NCBI GenBank assembly: GCA_965215265.1
Contig: OZ244048.1
Coordinates: 4,576,001 to 4,640,000, forward strand
Direction of reading: 5' to 3'
Source of the DNA: Candidatus Poribacteria bacterium
GTDB taxonomy: Bacteria > Poribacteria > WGA-4E > WGA-3G
DNA length: 64,000 nt
Shown here: in pieces, positions 16,294 to 61,963 of the stretch
Layout: each line of letters opens with the position of its first letter
Numbering within the stretch: the stretch's first letter is position 1
Program-made: the position numbers and the translations under genes
The notes under the pieces: model-generated
What the model was told of the DNA's origin: nothing
Seen by the model: only the letters and a program-made list of their open reading frames with translations
The model's database searches: none

Positions 16294-16374
16294 TTACTCT
16301 TGTGCCTTAAGCGTCGCCCAGCATTCTGTGAGTTTACCGTCCGCACTCAGATGCCCTTTCAAGCGGGTTGTCTG
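16294..16374 (-). other. In-frame post-stop tail A: QTTRLKGHLSADGKLTECWATLKAQE*
   Basis: Follows the TAG of 16375..17298 in frame; homologous to 60417..60497 and 60752..60832. Confidence 0.8.
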
Positions 16375-17298
16375 CTACGTGTCGGTGTGGTTGTCAGCTG
16401 CCTCCAGCTGCCGCACGAGTTCTGCACGCAGCGCCGGAGATAAATGAAGTCCGGCTAACCGCTCATCGGGAGTGAGTCCTTTGACGCGCTCATCGGCACT
16501 TAGGCGTGCTAACATATCGGTGCGTTCTTGAGGGCTCAAGCGGGACAGCATGTCCGCACGCTCCTCCGATGTCAGTGCAGACAGCAGCTTCGGACCTAAA
16601 GTCGTCGCAACTTCGCGAAGACGACTCTGAAAGAAATCTTGACGGCCTTCCATTTCACAAACCTCCTCCGTGACTTCCGGCTGCAAATACAACGCGGAGT
16701 CAAAATATAACGTATTCTCTTCCGTTATCACCCGCCGCAGGAACGCACGAAACTGTTTCTGCGACGACGCAAACAGCAGCAACCAATAATTCGGCTCAAC
16801 CACCTCCACTTCATTGCAAACCAACAGATGCACCGGCACGCCATCCATCAACCGATAATGCCCTGCCGCCAATGGCTCCCACGGCTCCCCAAAAGGCGGA
16901 CGGGAGAGCAGTGCCCGCGGCTTCCGAGACGACACTATCGTCAAGGTAACCTCCGTGTCTGGCACCTTATGCGCTGCGAGATAACCACGCGCACGCATAC
17001 AAATCCGGTGATACGCCGAGGCATTCAACGGATCGTTCTGCCCTTTGAATTCGAACAGATTATACGTCCGTAAGTAAGAGAGCAGCGGGTGCGCACGCAC
17101 TCTCGTGCGTGCCGCCGCGCTTTCGAGGAGAGCGAGTGCATCTATACGCTGCGGCAACCGGTTGACTTCTATCTCTGTCTGGATAGAGGCACCCAGCCCA
17201 GAGAACAGCAGGGCGAGGAACTCTTTGAAGAAAGGGTCCCAAAACTGCCGTTTGCTTTGTGTTTGTTTGGATGTCTCTGGTGCCGTAGTTTGCCTCAT
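16375..17298 (-). CDS. Rpn-like PD-(D/E)XK nuclease-fold protein, copy A
   Basis: WDPFFK, ExEV..PQRID and LFEFK motifs; C-terminal LSxxERxxxL helical repeats; close paralogue of 59316..60416. Confidence 0.65.
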   Translation of the reverse strand: MRQTTAPETSKQTQSKRQFWDPFFKEFLALLFSGLGASIQTEIEVNRLPQRIDALALLESAAARTRVRAHPLLSYLRTYNLFEFKGQNDPLNASAYHRICMRARGYLAAHKVPDTEVTLTIVSSRKPRALLSRPPFGEPWEPLAAGHYRLMDGVPVHLLVCNEVEVVEPNYWLLLFASSQKQFRAFLRRVITEENTLYFDSALYLQPEVTEEVCEMEGRQDFFQSRLREVATTLGPKLLSALTSEERADMLSRLSPQERTDMLARLSADERVKGLTPDERLAGLHLSPALRAELVRQLEAADNHTDT

Positions 17299-17457: not shown

Positions 17458-17508
17458 TAGGTTAGGTTAACTTAGATTTCACTGAGTTTATTCTTCCGAG
17501 TTAAGTTG

Positions 17509-19153
17509 TTAATTTGCCAGAGGCGAGATATCCGACACTTGCGTATCACTGAGATCCAGCACTCTCAAGTTCGTGAGGTTTGCCAGCGGCGTGACATCCG
17601 ACACTGGCGTACCCCCAAGATCCAACTCTTCCAAGTTGGTGGCGTATTCAAGTCCAGTCAGATTTCTAACGTCTGAGCCACTTAAATCTAGGCTTGTCAA
17701 GCCGAGCATATGTACCGAGGTCACAGCCGTCCCCGCGGAGATGTCGAGTGTCTCCTTGATTGCCGCAAGGAGCGTCTCATCCGGAATATTCACCTCGACG
17801 CTTGTATTTACAGGCACCGTCAGCGTATTCGAGGCACGGCTCAGGTTGCCCACTATGTCCATTGTGGCATCCGCTGGCACCGTTATTTCCACATCTCCGT
17901 CAAAAGCAGACGGCGGCGTGATAGTCGCTCTGTAGACTTTGAAGGCGGAACTATGTTTCACCAACCCCAGATCATCATTCGCCGGCGCAGAACCGGGATC
18001 CCGATGGTCTAAGCCGATTAACATCGGGGCTGAAACCTGCCAATCAGCCGTGGTGGTGCCTAGTGTCACCGCGGTGTCATCTACCTTGAGCGTGATGTCC
18101 GTCGCCTCGAAGCCTCGCGTGGTATCTGCAATCACACCATCAGCGTCATTTCCAATCCCATAATTGTAGAATAGGAATTCCACATCAAAGGACTCTGTCT
18201 GAGTGTCAGGTTCGGTAACAGGCGGATTGGGCTCTGCCGCTTCAAACGGTGCAAAATTCACATAGGCGGTGCGGTAACCCGTCTCAACATCATGAGTATC
18301 ATCCTTGATCAGGCCGTGGATCCTCACGCTCGCCCGGATAGTATCTATGAGATAGTTAAGACCGTCATGATCAGAAGGGGTCGGCAGCGGATGACTCCGG
18401 TCGTAAAAAATCTGCATCTTGTCATAGTAGATCCTCACATTACTCTGGTCAGTTTTCCACTTATCAGTATTGCCGGTGTTCTCGACGGGGTTCTCGACGG
18501 TAGCAGCTTTATCTATGATGAAATTATTTGCATCGTCAGAATAGGGATCCGGAGTGCGATCTATAACAACGCCATCGCCGAAAACGTCATCACCGTCTTG
18601 CACCTCGTATCTGAAATATACGACTTTATTATCGGTTCGCGCACCGGTCCTTACTGAATCATAGACGGCAGCTAGCTCAGTAGTGCCATCGGGGCGGGTG
18701 GTCTCACCGTCCATATCTAGCGCCAGGGCCGGCAGAGCGGACGTTCCATCGTGCTGGACTTTGACATCTATATCAAATGTCAACTTAAAAACGATTTCAT
18801 CTGTACTACCGAAAAATTTAACCGCTAGGCCCGTGGTGGGGTTGGAGTACCCCGGAGCAGTAAGAATGCCCGATGTATGGTTTGCTAGTAGATTCTTCCT
18901 AAAATTTCCACCCCGCTCCCAATCTGCAATTAACCGTGACCTGCTGTCCGCATAGAGCGAATCGCCTGTATGTGGACCTTCACTCTCTATCTCAACCGAC
19001 TCTAACATCGGTTTATCTGCCTGCACGGTAGCCATCGGTGCGGCTAACATCGCAATCCCGGCTATCGAAATTACAGATGAGATAAATCCGCCACTCAACA
19101 CGCAAATAAAACACTTAACATATAGAAGGGGGGGGGTGCATTCTTCTCTTCAT
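17509..19153 (-). CDS. Secreted Ig-like + internalin-type LRR protein A; out of frame at the poly-C tract as sequenced
   Basis: ORF 17509..19101 has an Ig-like segment, a VNIPD cap and LRRs (LTNLxxLDL); the RBS-linked ATG at 19153 joins this frame only if C9 becomes C8. Confidence 0.75.
19128..19136 (-). repeat. C9 homopolymer in the leader-peptide coding region of LRR gene A
   Basis: Nine G on the + strand at 19128-19136. Confidence 0.85.
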
Positions 19154-57643: not shown

Positions 57644-58956
57644 ATGAAGAGAAGAATGTATCCCCCCCTCTATATGTTAAGTGTTTTAGTTCTATTATTA
57701 ATCGCTGGGCTTGTTATGCCGTTTACAAACACCCCTTAACCTGTTCCATTCTATTTTGCATCACGCTTTCGTTACTCATTGCCCCCCTGGCAGTGAGCCA
57801 AAGTCCAGTAGTGAACATTCCGGATGCGACGCTCCGTGCGGAAATCCAGAAGAGCCTCAAACCCGCGGGGGGGGCTATCACCCAGGCAGATATGCTCCGC
57901 TTGACACGCCTCGATTTGAGAAACCTCAATTCAGATGAACGATCAAACGTTAGCAATCTGACAGGACTTGAATTCGCAACCAACTTGGAAGAGCTGGCTC
58001 TCAATGATACGCAAGTGTCGGATATCTCGCCGCTGGCAAACCTCACCAACTTGAGATGGCTGCATCTCAAGCGTACGCAAGTGTCGGATATCTCGCCGCT
58101 GGCAAACCTCACCAACTTGAGATGGCTGCATCTCGAGGATGCGCAAGTGTCGGATATCTCGCCGCTGGCAAACCTCACCAACTTGGAAACGCTGTATCTC
58201 TCGGGAACGCTGTCGGATATCTCGCTGCTGTCAACCTTCACCAACTTGGAACATCTGTCTCTCGGGGATACGCAAGTGTCGGATATCTCGCCGCTGTCAA
58301 GCCTCACCAACTTGGATTGGCTGGATCTCGGTGGTACGCAAGTGTCGGATATCTCACCGCTGTCAAACCTCACCAATTTGGAAACGCTGTATCTCAGGGG
58401 TACGCAAGTGTCGGATATCTCGCCTCTGGCAGGCCTCACCAACTTGAGAAGGCTGGATATCACTAATACGCCAGTGTCGGATATCTCGGCACTGTCAAGC
58501 CTCACCAACTTGACAGTGATAGGTTTTGCGGGTTCGGTGGTGAACATTGCGGATGAGACGGTCCGTGCGAAAATAGAGGAGACACTCAACATCTCCGCGG
58601 GGACGGCTGTGACCTCGGCAGATATGCTCCGCTTGACAAGCCTCGATTTAGGTGGCTCAGACGTTAGCGATCTGACTTTCCTTCAATCTGCAACCAACTT
58701 GGAAACGCTGAATCTTGCGGGTGCGGTGGTAGAAAATATCTCGCCTCTGTCAGAGCTCACTCGTTTGGAAACGCTAGATCTCTCGGGTACGCAAGTGTCG
58801 GATATCTCGCCGCTGTCAAGCCTCACCAACTTGGAAGAGCTGGATCTCGGTGGTACGCAAGTGTCGGATATCTCTCCACTGTCAGAACTCACCAACTTGA
58901 AAAAGTTGGATCTCAGTGATACGGAAGTGTCGGATATCTCAGCCCTGTCAAAGTAA
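57644..58956 (+). CDS. Secreted internalin-type LRR protein B; out of frame at the poly-C tract as sequenced
   Basis: ORF 57793..58956 has two VNIxD caps and 22-aa LRRs; the reading frame stays open back to the C7 tract; the RBS-linked ATG 57644 joins it if C7 becomes C8. Confidence 0.78.
57662..57668 (+). repeat. C7 homopolymer in the leader-peptide coding region of LRR gene B
   Basis: atgtaT-CCCCCCC-tctatatg. Confidence 0.8.
57980..58953 (+). repeat. 66-bp coding tandem repeats (LRR units) in two blocks
   Basis: Recurrent CAAGTGTCGGATATCTCGCCGCTG...CTCACCAACTTG scaffold. Confidence 0.9.
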
Positions 58957-59151
58957 CATGGAGGTAAAGTCGTGTTGGAATCAGGCGTTTCGGACACCGG
59001 TCGCACCTCTGGCCACTTCACTTCCCTGATGCACGCGTCATCAACCTGCGGCGCGAGAGTGCTTATCGCGATAAACTGGATCTGGAACGGCGTTCGCCAG
59101 TGCAAGCCATCACCGCAGTGAGCTCTAAGTTAAACTAAACTAAACTAAACT

Positions 59152-59195
59152 AACCAGGGGCAGCCACCCTCACATGGCTGCCCCCGGTTTTTTTT
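59152..59195 (+). terminator. Intrinsic terminator (repeated element, copy 2), preceded by (TAAAC)n
   Basis: CCAGGGGCAGCCA-loop-TGGCTGCCCCCGG followed by T8. Confidence 0.85.
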
Positions 59196-59252: not shown

Positions 59253-59282
59253 TTGACAAAAAAGGAGAAAGGCTGCTATACT
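59253..59282 (+). promoter_or_regulatory. Sigma70 promoter of Rpn-like copy B
   Basis: TTGACA-N18-TATACT with extended -10 TG. Confidence 0.75.
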
Positions 59283-59315: not shown

Positions 59316-60416
59316 ATGAGGCAAACTACCGCACCAGAGACATCTAAAGAAACACAAAGCAAACGTAAACTCTGGGACCCTTTCTTCAAAGAGTTCCTCG
59401 CCCGGCTGTTCTCTGGGCTGGGTGCCTCTATCCAGACAGAGATAGAAGTCAACCGGTTGCCGCAGCGTATAGATGCACTCGCTCTCCTCGAAAGTGCCGC
59501 AGCCCGGGCGAGAGTGCGTGCGAATCCGCTGCTCTCTTACTTACGCACGTATAATCTGTTCGAGTTCAAAGGGCAGAACGATCCGTTGAATGAATCGGCG
59601 TATCACCGGATTTGTATGCGTGCGCGTGGTTATCTCGCAGATAAGCAGGTGCCTGCAACCGAGTTAACCCTCACAATAGTGTCGTCTCGGAAGCCGCGGG
59701 CGCTGCTGACACATCCGCCTTTCGGGTTGCCGTGGCAGCAGCTCGCCCCGGGACATTATACCCAGGCAGGTCTGCCGGTGCATCTGTTGGTTTGCAATGA
59801 AGTGGCACTGGTTGAGCCGAATTATTGGTTGCTGCTGTTTGCGTCGTCGCAGAAACAGTTTCGTGCGTTCCTGCGGCGGGTGATAACAGAAGAGAATACG
59901 TTATATTTTGACTCCGCGTTGTATTTGCAGCCGGAAGTCACGGAGGAGGTTTGTGAAATGGAAGGACATCAAGATTTCTTTCAGAGTCGTCTTCGCGAAG
60001 TTGCGACGACTTTAGGTCCGAAGCTGCTGTCGGCGCTGACTACGTCGGATAGATTGGCTCTGTTGAATGCGATGCCCGCGGCAGAACGGGCCGATATATT
60101 GGCGAGTTTACCCGCCGCAGAACGGGCTGATATGTTGGCGAGTTTACCCGCCGCAGAACGGGCTGATATGTTGGCGAGTTTACCCGCCGCAGAACGGGCC
60201 GATATGTTGGCGAGTTTACCCGCCGCAGAACGGGCGGATATGTTGGCGAGTCTACCCGCCGCAGAACGGGCGGATATGTTAGCACGCCTGAGTCCCGATG
60301 AGCGCGTCAAAGGACTCACTCCCGATGAGCGGTTAGCCGGACTTCATTTATCTCCGGCGGTGCGTGCAGAACTCGTGCGGCAGCTGGAGACAGCTGACAA
60401 TGACACCGACATGTAG
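59316..60416 (+). CDS. Rpn-like PD-(D/E)XK nuclease-fold protein, copy B
   Basis: Same motifs as copy A; expanded 12-aa C-terminal repeats. Confidence 0.65.
   Translation: MRQTTAPETSKETQSKRKLWDPFFKEFLARLFSGLGASIQTEIEVNRLPQRIDALALLESAAARARVRANPLLSYLRTYNLFEFKGQNDPLNESAYHRICMRARGYLADKQVPATELTLTIVSSRKPRALLTHPPFGLPWQQLAPGHYTQAGLPVHLLVCNEVALVEPNYWLLLFASSQKQFRAFLRRVITEENTLYFDSALYLQPEVTEEVCEMEGHQDFFQSRLREVATTLGPKLLSALTTSDRLALLNAMPAAERADILASLPAAERADMLASLPAAERADMLASLPAAERADMLASLPAAERADMLASLPAAERADMLARLSPDERVKGLTPDERLAGLHLSPAVRAELVRQLETADNDTDM
60075..60290 (+). repeat. Six 36-bp coding tandem repeats (PAAERADMLASL)
   Basis: CCCGCCGCAGAACGGGCxGATATGTTGGCGAGTTTA units, contiguous and in frame. Confidence 0.92.
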
Positions 60417-60497
60417 CAGACAACCCGCTTGAAAGGGCATCTGAGTGCAGACGGTAAACTCACAGAACGCTGGGCAACGCTCAAATCGGAAGAATAA
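60417..60497 (+). other. In-frame post-stop tail B: QTTRLKGHLSADGKLTERWATLKSEE*
   Basis: Follows the TAG at 60414-60416 in frame. Confidence 0.8.
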
Positions 60498-60531
60498 ACT
60501 CAGTGAGATTTAAACTAAATTAAACTAACCT

Positions 60532-60574
60532 AACCAGGGGCAGCCACGCTCACATGGCTGCCCCTGGTTTTTTT
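60532..60574 (+). terminator. Intrinsic terminator (repeated element, copy 3)
   Basis: CCAGGGGCAGCCA-loop-TGGCTGCCCCTGG followed by T7. Confidence 0.85.
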
Positions 60575-60672
60575 GCTTTGGATAGATGGTTCTGCTTTTG
60601 TGCCGGAAAATCCGATGCCCTGGTGCGAGTCAAAACACGCTCCGTTTTCGCACCGGGGCTCCAAAAAAAGGG

Positions 60673-60832
60673 TTGACAACATAAAAGCGAGGCTGCTATA
60701 CTAGAAATAAAGAGAGTGCTGGTGGCAGCTGACAACCACACCGACATGTAGCAGACGACGCGGTTGAGAGGACATCTGAGTGCGGATGGAAAACTCACCG
60801 AACGGTGGACAACACTCAAGGCGCAAGAGTAA
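60673..60832 (+). other. Third, 'empty' unit: promoter + last codons of the Rpn-like gene + TAG + tail C
   Basis: TTGACA-N18-TATACT at 60673-60702; ...AADNHTDM* ends at 60751; QTTRLRGHLSADGKLTERWTTLKAQE* at 60752-60832. Confidence 0.75.
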
Positions 60833-60891
60833 GCGTGCGGATGAGTTTGTCTCAACCTAACCTCAATAGGGGACGCTCCTCTCCGGAGCGC

Positions 60892-60990
60892 ACAGTGCTA
60901 AGCAACTTCTCTTTTGATGCCAATGGCGACGCGATTTACGACCCGGTTATCCTCAACGTTAAGCATCGCAAATTTCAGGTCTTCGAGTAG
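60892..60990 (+). pseudogene. 3' fragment of a probable branched-chain amino acid-type ABC substrate-binding protein gene
   Basis: TVLSNFSFDANGDAIYDPVILNVKHRKFQVFE* resembles the FDxNGD C-terminus of LivJ-like proteins. Confidence 0.5.
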
Positions 60991-61153: not shown

Positions 61154-61963
61154 ATGCACGGAAATCTAAAAGGTACCGGTTATAAATTCACATGGCTTAT
61201 CTTAGTCCTTTCAGCCGTGTGTCTGTTCGCTGTCAGTTTGACTCACGCAGTTGAAGAAGAGGACATCCTTGTTTACTACTCGTTTGACAAACTCAATGGG
61301 AAGGTCTTTCCAGATGACTCTGGTAATGGGAACGATGCCGAGCTCGTTGGCAAGGGTTCTCTGGTTGATGGACAATTCAAAAAAGCGGTTCATCTAAGCG
61401 GTGGCGGCATTGTCCAAATGAGCCCCGCCAATGATTTTATTGTACCGATTGGCGAGAACGGCGAGATTACGATGGAGGCCTGGTTTTACCTGAATGAACA
61501 CGCCTCGTACGATGGGATTATCTCTATTGAGGCTGCTGCCGGCGGGTGTTGCGAATTCCGGACTATGGTAGACCCCGATTTTAACCCGTTTTGGGATGCT
61601 GGACACCATGCTGATAAACAGTTGGCAAATTTCCAATTTGAATTGGACGAATGGTACCACTACGTACTGGTTGCAGATGGCAAGGACGGCAAAATCTACG
61701 TCAACGGCGAGTTTATCGGGGAGCAGCCTGAGAATTTTAAGTGGCCGGAGTTCAAAGAGGCGGCGATTTACATCGGGGCCGGGGAAAACCCGACGCTCCA
61801 TAAGGTGGAGGACGCAATTATTGATGAGGTGGTTATCTACGCAAAAGCTTTGACCTTGGCGGAGATTCGCGAATCTATGGAATTGAGCATCCCAGGCGTG
61901 CTGGCTGTGGATGCACGCGATAAGTTGACAACCACTTGGGGAGACCTGAAAGACAGTTTTTAA
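61154..61963 (+). CDS. Secreted LamG-like jellyroll protein with C-terminal VDARDKLTTTWGDLK motif
   Basis: YYSFD, DDSGNGND, WYHYV, IYVNG and IIDEVVIY motifs; signal peptide ending THA; GGAGGAG RBS. Confidence 0.85.
   Translation: MHGNLKGTGYKFTWLILVLSAVCLFAVSLTHAVEEEDILVYYSFDKLNGKVFPDDSGNGNDAELVGKGSLVDGQFKKAVHLSGGGIVQMSPANDFIVPIGENGEITMEAWFYLNEHASYDGIISIEAAAGGCCEFRTMVDPDFNPFWDAGHHADKQLANFQFELDEWYHYVLVADGKDGKIYVNGEFIGEQPENFKWPEFKEAAIYIGAGENPTLHKVEDAIIDEVVIYAKALTLAEIRESMELSIPGVLAVDARDKLTTTWGDLKDSF

Follow-up and report, generated by a model that had tools for sequence, protein, structure and literature searches.

Coding-like tails behind Rpn-like nuclease genes of a Candidatus Poribacteria genome are probably stranded ends of a surface-protein gene

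Results

Tails and nuclease genes in the window

We analysed a window of 64,000 nucleotides, which corresponds to positions 4576001-4640000 of the single 4.83 Mb contig (C1) of the genome G000. The window carries Rpn-like nuclease genes in units A and B, LRR genes upstream of them, a LamG gene and three copies (A, B and C) of a short coding-like tail (Table 1). The initial annotation had reported these tails as TAG followed by 26 codons and TAA, in frame and without indels, and we found all three exactly so at the positions it gave. Our recount of the codon differences between tails B and C also returned its 12 synonymous and 4 amino-acid-changing codons, and the corresponding figures are 5 and 3 for tails A and B, and 10 and 3 for tails A and C. 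The accompanying description of three like units holds for the tails, which are present in all of them, but not for the nuclease gene, since unit C has only the promoter and the last ~11 codons of one. Thus, what stands in front of tail C is a gene stub and not a gene. The tail C region is covered by overlapping contigs of the sequencing runs X5, X6 and X7 without differences. At 3' of this tail, the end of an orphan reading frame (window 60860-60990) has no nearby start and resembles another gene's 3' end, with an 81%-identical 55-nt match at C1:982173.

Table 1. Features of the window (positions are those of the whole window)
Feature	Position	Strand	Remarks
Tail A	16294..16374	-	R18C; family hairpin lost just 3' of tail
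Nuclease gene, unit A	16375..17298	-	Rpn-like; 307 aa
Remnant of the tail's very end	17488..17508	-	behind unit A LRR stop; without motif Trp
LRR gene, unit A	17509..19101	-	ends without tag
LRR gene	57793..58956	+	ends at its own TAA, without tag
Relic of LTD gene middle	58993..59116	+	aa 643-681; remaining gene including tail deleted
Upstream copy of LTD-family terminator hairpin	59157..59184	+
Sigma-70-like promoter of unit B nuclease gene	59253..59282	+	11/12 consensus matches
Nuclease gene, unit B	59316..60416	+	Rpn-like PD-(D/E)XK; 366 aa; D53, E83, K85; predicted internal GGAG-ATG start at 59958; variable C-terminal repeats
TAG stop of unit B nuclease gene	60414..60416	+	deletion joint; G = last base of LTD Leu codon before tail
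Tail B	60417..60497	+	detached last 26 codons and stop of LTD secreted-protein gene; 2 synonymous differences vs intact genes' tail
LTD-family 3' UTR	60498..60575	+	CTAAA/CTAAC runs and terminator-like hairpin (60532-60569)
Second copy of nuclease gene's sigma-70-like promoter	60673..60702	+
Gene stub	60718..60751	+	last ~11 codons and TAG of deleted second Rpn-like gene
Tail C	60752..60832	+	older, divergent tail relic; different hairpin 3' of tail
LamG secreted-protein gene	61154..61963	+	same C-terminal motif; resident flanking gene, 3' neighbour of uppP in four relatives

We then collected the tail copies of G000 from a tblastn list, leaving out two matches that end ordinary tagged genes as well as every weaker match. 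As a result, 24 copies were obtained, of which 4 end an intact ORF, 10 follow TAG, 5 follow a nuclease-gene TAA and a spacer of 25-150 nt, and 5 follow the stop of an LRR gene; 14/24 copies are thus not behind TAG. The TAG joint occurs on both subtypes of the nuclease gene (8 type-1 and 1 type-2). All ten TAG tails are in frame and eight keep the motif intact, whereas its Trp is lost in two, by a deletion in one case and by W>R with a long extension in the other. The absence of indels is true of tails A, B and C, but these three are not typical, as other copies in the genome show frame-breaking deletions, 5' truncations, W>R and a lost stop.

The tail is the native end of an LTD gene

The four tails at intact genes are the in-frame ends of ORFs of 900, 902, 1090 and 1412 aa, which bear lamin-tail (PF00932) and LRR domains; CTG precedes the tail, and the four are identical to each other. 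Hence, the earlier proposal that the tails represent the 3' ends of genes for secreted proteins was borne out for 4/24 copies by direct fusion to an intact ORF. In the sister species G001, seven ORFs end in the LTD tail region, and this region is present in 23/24 genomes of the same family, mostly within long open frames among the matches listed. The C-terminal motif lies near the end in 117/117 LTD homologs from other genomes (117 of the 120 homologs listed, out of 669 found, the other 3 being G000 proteins; the W and K positions served as anchors). Furthermore, the simple-repeat spacer and hairpin at 3' of the tail look like the 3' UTRs that some relatives have at their intact genes, and UTRs of a similar kind stand behind intact LTD genes of G000 itself and of certain relatives, among them L041, L032 and L042. 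Since the tail ends intact ORFs, the same region recurs in relatives and the 3' UTRs are alike, the tail is the native end of the LTD gene.

The CTAAA/CTAAC runs before the terminator (window 60498-60531 and 59120-59156) recur in the LTD 3' UTRs of other genera (L032, L041, L042), which suggests that they are a conserved cis element. LTD C-terminal matches number 38 in G002, 20 in G007, 17 in G013 and 15 in G004, against 4 intact genes in G000. Within G000, two loci have the LRR and LTD parts in one fused gene and two others have them as separate genes (C1:2389896-2394134, 2496467-2499739, 1757126-1761573 and 4105382-4110039), and the N-terminal passenger domains of the LRR genes vary from cassette to cassette.

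The same motif ends other proteins as well, including the LamG protein of the window, as the initial annotation had pointed out. Among 109 matches in ORFs of at least 120 aa, 105 end within 16 aa of the C-terminus, and 104 of these within 12 aa. A hydrophobic N-terminal stretch is found in 91/99 motif-tagged ORFs of at least 150 aa, compared with 680/1,942 other long ORFs. The presumed role as a sorting signal would fit the position of the motif and its cargo. A T9SS C-terminal sorting domain (TIGR04183) has been reported on Poribacteria proteins without the secretion genes in the available text of Kamke et al. (PMC3909097). The motif described here resembles that domain in being a C-terminal address on many secreted proteins, but consists of a short peptide, and no TIGR04183 match was obtained for the LamG protein or the LTD protein. 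In the literature, as far as titles, abstracts and accessible text reach, we found no description of this motif, and only the T9SS-type domain in PMC3909097.

Anatomy of the Rpn-like nuclease

The nuclease proteins of the window matched no nuclease model in Pfam, NCBIfam or PADLOC, including PF04754, PF12784 and TIGR01784. Among 91 homologous sequences, 6 matched TIGR01784 (E<=0.01) and 4 matched DUF4351, and the nearest named Atlas clusters were PF04754 (16% of members) and DUF4351 (66%), with a score of 0.90. The alignment of these 91 sequences has D53 and K85 invariant and E83 in at least 90%. A structure model of the unit A paralog (pLDDT 92) was compared with PDB entries by VIA-align, giving Z 9.6 for 1y88 (rmsd 3.1, 114 aligned), 9.4 for 2vld (3.1, 105) and 8.7 for McrBC 6hz4 (3.6, 117). 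A Foldseek search had no match at E<=0.001, and a sequence search of the PDB returned none of significance. As judged from the alignment and the predicted model, the nuclease thus shows the PD-(D/E)XK fold and its catalytic residues.

All 17 type-1 copies in G000 are open, and a GGAG-rich site precedes an in-frame ATG in 17/17 contexts (15/17 with the strict pattern). The C-terminal repeats, mainly of 12 aa and some of 8 aa, number 2-13 in type-1 genes. The type-2 paralogs (C1:1762079-1763796 and 4101304-4104858) are followed by tandem stand-alone small C-terminal copies, each with GGAG-ATG, one of which has an early stop. We also noted four near-identical repeats (C1:437312, 1720339, 4202031 and 4366229) that consist of the nuclease promoter and a decayed internal-start region with no ORF. 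We obtained 32 matches to the family in G000, and one match each, at ~41% identity, in 3/40 relatives.

The features in common with Rpn and the RpnL/RpnS pair, as described in the accessible part of Zhong et al. (10.1101/2023.05.02.539157), are the PD-(D/E)XK fold, a predicted internal RBS-ATG and a C-terminal part of variable repeat number. The rpn arrays treated there are also alike in their patchy occurrence, with expansion in individual strains, in their variable ends and tandem duplications, and in having stand-alone copies of the small protein downstream, here seen at the type-2 paralogs. In contrast to those arrays, the window proteins match no family model and the repeats are mainly of 12 aa (some 8) instead of 4. 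The nuclease is therefore Rpn-like by anatomy and not a member by model score; it probably works like the RpnL/RpnS toxin-antitoxin pair.

The amber codon is a deletion joint

When the intact LTD gene was compared with the genome by blastn, the homology started at the G of TAG, gene nt 2628, in 9/10 TAG copies, the tenth falling below the listing threshold of that search. LTD-type sequence runs up to exactly 60416 also in contigs of runs X1, X5 and X6, which come from three studies, one of them possibly of the source sample. The amber codon is the nuclease stop joined to the end of the LTD cargo gene.

Other copies preserve further parts of this gene. The relics form a deletion series that comprises aa 801-823 with W>stop (4 copies), aa 643-681 (4 copies), the last 10 codons (4) and the last ~5 codons (4); in the four copies that hold aa 801-823, whole or in part, a Trp codon has become a stop and the frame is broken. 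Additional relics start at aa 845, 869, 877 or 882, those from aa 845 and 882 running to the end, and four loci, including window 58993-59116, have aa 643-681 or part of it without a tail. One deletion would be enough to explain all of the TAG copies, so that their reading frame would be a single one-in-three event.

Every one of the 17 type-1 nuclease genes is preceded by an LTD 3' end or a relic of it: by an intact LTD gene in 4 cases, by an LRR gene with remnants in 9, by no more than a relic in 1 and by another nuclease gene and tail in 3. Two cassettes (C1:1076415-1076954 and 3454274-3454780) have the same downstream gene fragment, indicating that flanking DNA was copied along with the unit. 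An Rfam search gave one match, at chance level.

Synonymous variants are shared and private changes look like decay

The synonymous bias that had been read as a coding signature is far above chance, but the changes private to detached tails look like decay. Synonymous sites make up 18.3 of the 78 sites of the tail, and 18 of 22 shared variants are synonymous (binomial p=1e-8), although one of these 18 calls falls in the K6I codon and is path-dependent. Among 16 gap-free tails, the shared variants (18 synonymous, 4 amino-acid-changing) differ from the singletons (1 and 9; Fisher p=2e-4), which fit the neutral synonymous share of 0.235 (p=0.47) and are located, every one, in a detached tail. The shared residues also occur in the 117 intact relatives (R6 in 25, A24 in 63 and Q25 in 24), whereas 7/9 private residues occur in 0/117. 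H8Y, counted as private, is nevertheless common among these relatives (26/117), and K6I is common to two detached tails and found in no intact protein.

Two controls did not reach significance: singletons of the open nuclease genes are 17 synonymous and 31 amino-acid-changing, compared with 1 and 9 in the tails (p=0.15), and changes polarised on G001 stand at 4:1 in the intact lineage against 6:12 in detached tails (p=0.13), while 8/9 unpolarised changes are synonymous. No intact gene with a tail or codons of the C type was found, the four intact G000 tails being identical, and a search of metagenome contigs with a degenerate tail pattern and the nuclease protein gave no match. In view of these two controls, and since codons of the C type were seen in no intact gene, some TAG tails may be under weak selection.

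All four gametes are present for 94/171 site pairs within the 81 nt of 13 tails (three identical intact copies dropped), which means that the tails are mosaics. Since no intact C-type gene was found, the donors of the old synonymous haplotypes would have to be postulated. A DGR variable region was considered and rejected as a source of the variation, because the variant sites span all four bases and the shared ones are mostly third-position, with no adenine specificity.

Cassettes occupy sites that are empty in the sister species

The synteny of 8 units was compared with one genome, that of G001. Ten of the 16 cassette flanks pair into 5 empty sites there, and 6/16 are unpaired. Two of the five sites are simple insertions, one with a 75 bp gap and one with adjacent flanks and extra DNA inserted. 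The other three pair flanks of different units: the left flank of window unit B and the right flank of the 2.39 Mb unit are 27 bp apart in G001, the left flank of the 2.39 Mb unit and the right flank of the 4.11 Mb unit are 44 bp apart, and uppP, at 1.37 Mb in G000, and the LamG gene of the window are 2.1 kb apart in G001. The latter two genes are adjacent in G002, G004 and G012. All three swapped pairs are oriented as expected from a crossover inside cassettes; one synteny break within the window falls where no cassette was seen. Between uppP and LamG, G001 carries an unrelated 284-aa ORF (L107:11609-12463), so this intergenic site took an insertion twice.

None of the seven LTD genes of G001 lies at these empty sites, and the unit DNA of the cassette had no match in 40 relatives. 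In 20 loci, the shared blocks stop at differing positions. As for the hallmarks of insertion sequences, fixed ends, terminal repeats and target duplication were not found; the single clean insertion tested had no end repeat longer than an 8 nt G/T run. Contigs of four of the 23 runs listed (X1, X5, X6 and X7) break at the repeats, and the joints listed match paralogous units. Two other models were discarded, namely retro-copying, since the 3' ends have no fixed position and in many cases extend into promoter or nuclease DNA, and descent from resident paralogs, since the cassette sites are empty in G001.

Discussion

We consider it likely that the tails are stranded ends of LTD genes behind the nuclease, left by a lineage-specific cassette of adhesin and Rpn-like genes that was duplicated, partly deleted and spread, and that rearranged the chromosome. 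Each tail would be a relic, made of the last 26 codons and the terminator of a secreted LTD/LRR surface-protein gene with the C-terminal motif of the Poribacteria type. In the G000 lineage, an Rpn-like nuclease gene came to sit directly behind the LTD terminator, as is seen at the present loci. The block of LRR gene, LTD gene, tail, terminator, promoter and nuclease gene may then have been duplicated in tandem and copied to new intergenic sites, which are the sites found empty in G001. Deletions from one nuclease stop to the tail of the next block probably stripped the cargo stepwise; the series of relics is on record, and internal deletion after duplication would be its cause. The shortest of these steps fused a nuclease stop to the tail in frame and thereby made the TAG, a joint that we observe directly and that may have arisen once. 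The synonymous signature would mostly have been gained while the tails belonged to working genes. Recombination and gene conversion among the copies, evident as mosaicism and with intact genes as the presumed source, would keep and mix this signature while each detached copy drifts. The tail and terminator may also serve as portable homology, with crossovers inside cassettes rearranging the chromosome, as the three swapped flank pairs indicate.

Programmed stop-codon read-through and pyrrolysine decoding are known for in-frame coding-like sequence after UAG, and the first of two earlier models held that programmed or selected amber read-through extends the nuclease, or its small internal product, by the C-terminal tag. 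The conserved frame of the ten TAG copies with the motif kept in eight, the presence of the joint on both nuclease subtypes and the two non-significant selection controls speak for it. However, one deletion can account for all TAG copies; the tail persists equally where a stop-containing spacer separates it from TAA, where it is out of frame downstream of an LRR stop and where the gene stub precedes it, the 14 copies elsewhere than behind TAG being in part in such unreadable contexts; and the private changes are decay-like. Unlike in read-through and pyrrolysine systems, the TAG here is a deletion joint, and the decoding machinery was not found: none of the 49 ARAGORN tRNA genes of G000 is a CUA tRNA, no PylS match was obtained in this 95% complete genome, and prfA (RF1) is intact and above the cut-off. 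The selenocysteine tRNA at C1:2081521-2081614 concerns UGA and not UAG. As 562 long ORFs of G000 end in TAG, with a median open frame of 15 codons after the stop, the same as for TAA and TGA, TAG is an ordinary stop in this genome. Moreover, the hydrophobic N-terminal stretch of 91/99 tagged ORFs is found in 0/17 internal products, although this test is crude, because 9/17 full-length nucleases pass it and are not separated from cargo, the stretch in these apparently being helix 1 of the nuclease fold. We therefore regard programmed or selected read-through as very improbable. Ordinary leaky read-through, judged from the sequence, may be possible, and the additional notion that leaky UAG read-through tags some of the nuclease molecules is about as doubtful as the programmed form. 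It is extremely improbable that the detached tails are translated alone as small decoy peptides. An ATG does open a ~60-codon frame ending in the motif in 2/4 long-spacer copies (spacers 3' of C1:4028813 and 2922775), but the remaining two are frameshifted or broken, the frame so opened differs from that of the LTD relic, and the TAG-class tails have, as was claimed from the beginning, no in-frame ATG.

The second earlier model, in which a promoter-nuclease unit inserts just before the tag and cuts the cargo from it, so that excision would rejoin the two as in a phase switch, agrees with the untagged LRR genes upstream of units with the tail downstream, and with the fused LRR-LTD-tag ORFs at 2 loci. 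This reading is already contradicted by the anatomy of the units and is almost certainly wrong: the nuclease unit sits behind the tail and terminator of its cargo, as at the 4 intact loci; excision would re-tag 0/9 LRR genes, because in 9/9 LRR-headed units all shared sequence comes after the TAA of the LRR gene itself; and untagged LRR genes also directly precede intact LTD genes at 2 loci. Integrative elements duplicate the 3' ends of their target genes as attL and attR, and the cassette is similar in that a detached in-register gene end and terminator lie beyond the inserted block, usable as homology. The tail and terminator could be a selected DNA attachment site, where a repeat-flanked nuclease cassette excises from and integrates at LTD 3' ends by single, nuclease-stimulated crossovers. 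Direct repeats flank the nuclease at several loci, all 17 genes are at the same place, mosaicism of the tails is strong, the family is expanded in the G000 lineage only, and the ends often reach part-way into a further promoter or nuclease start, all of which favour such a site. Nevertheless, the relics vary in length, the ends are not fixed and the block takes its cargo along. Complete cassettes, LRR/LTD cargo included, are located where G001 has empty sites, and correspond to 0 of its 7 LTD loci, so that a simple entry of the nuclease into resident genes is not what happened. We noticed no integrase in the ORF listings of the units, and no clear circle joint was seen among those listed for four runs. 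In their available text, Zhong et al. (10.1101/2023.05.02.539157) found no evidence of autonomous transposition of rpn genes and put their movement down to recombination or hitchhiking. We hold this attachment-site function to be improbable, and participation of the nuclease in the copying of the cassette is also unlikely. A broader scheme would be a transposase-free mobile cassette, whose unclassified Rpn-like nuclease promotes recombination at the tagged-gene 3' end and terminator and in this way multiplies together with adhesin-like cargo, shuffling LRR and passenger domains and rearranging the chromosome, while the repeat-number specificity of the internal antitoxin keeps the 17 copies addictive; it has an outside chance.

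Returning to stranded LTD-gene ends as the preferred explanation, a detached gene end is nothing unusual, rpn arrays have been described before, and the cassette is a variant of them. According to the portion of Zhong et al. available (10.1101/2023.05.02.539157), rpn genes have no terminal repeats or target duplications; their ends vary, they are duplicated in tandem, their small genes are duplicated as well, and specificity depends on repeat number. The difference is that the genes in G000 travel with LRR/LTD surface-protein cargo and relics of the cargo 3' end, undescribed in that portion. At the level of titles and abstracts, we found no description in the literature of a coupling of rpn-like genes to LRR/LTD surface-protein cargo and rearrangements, or of this cassette.

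These results remove an apparent case of bacterial amber read-through, and expose a trap, in that a coding signature behind a stop may come from intact paralogs and be kept by recombination. The relics confirm one uncharacterised C-terminal motif that is common to LTD proteins and about 100 small secreted proteins. The genome also offers a clear example from nature of Rpn-like genes that have expanded as a family together with surface-protein genes and that sit at genome rearrangements, and it bears on how rpn genes move, for which recombination or hitchhiking is named in the accessible text of Zhong et al. (10.1101/2023.05.02.539157).
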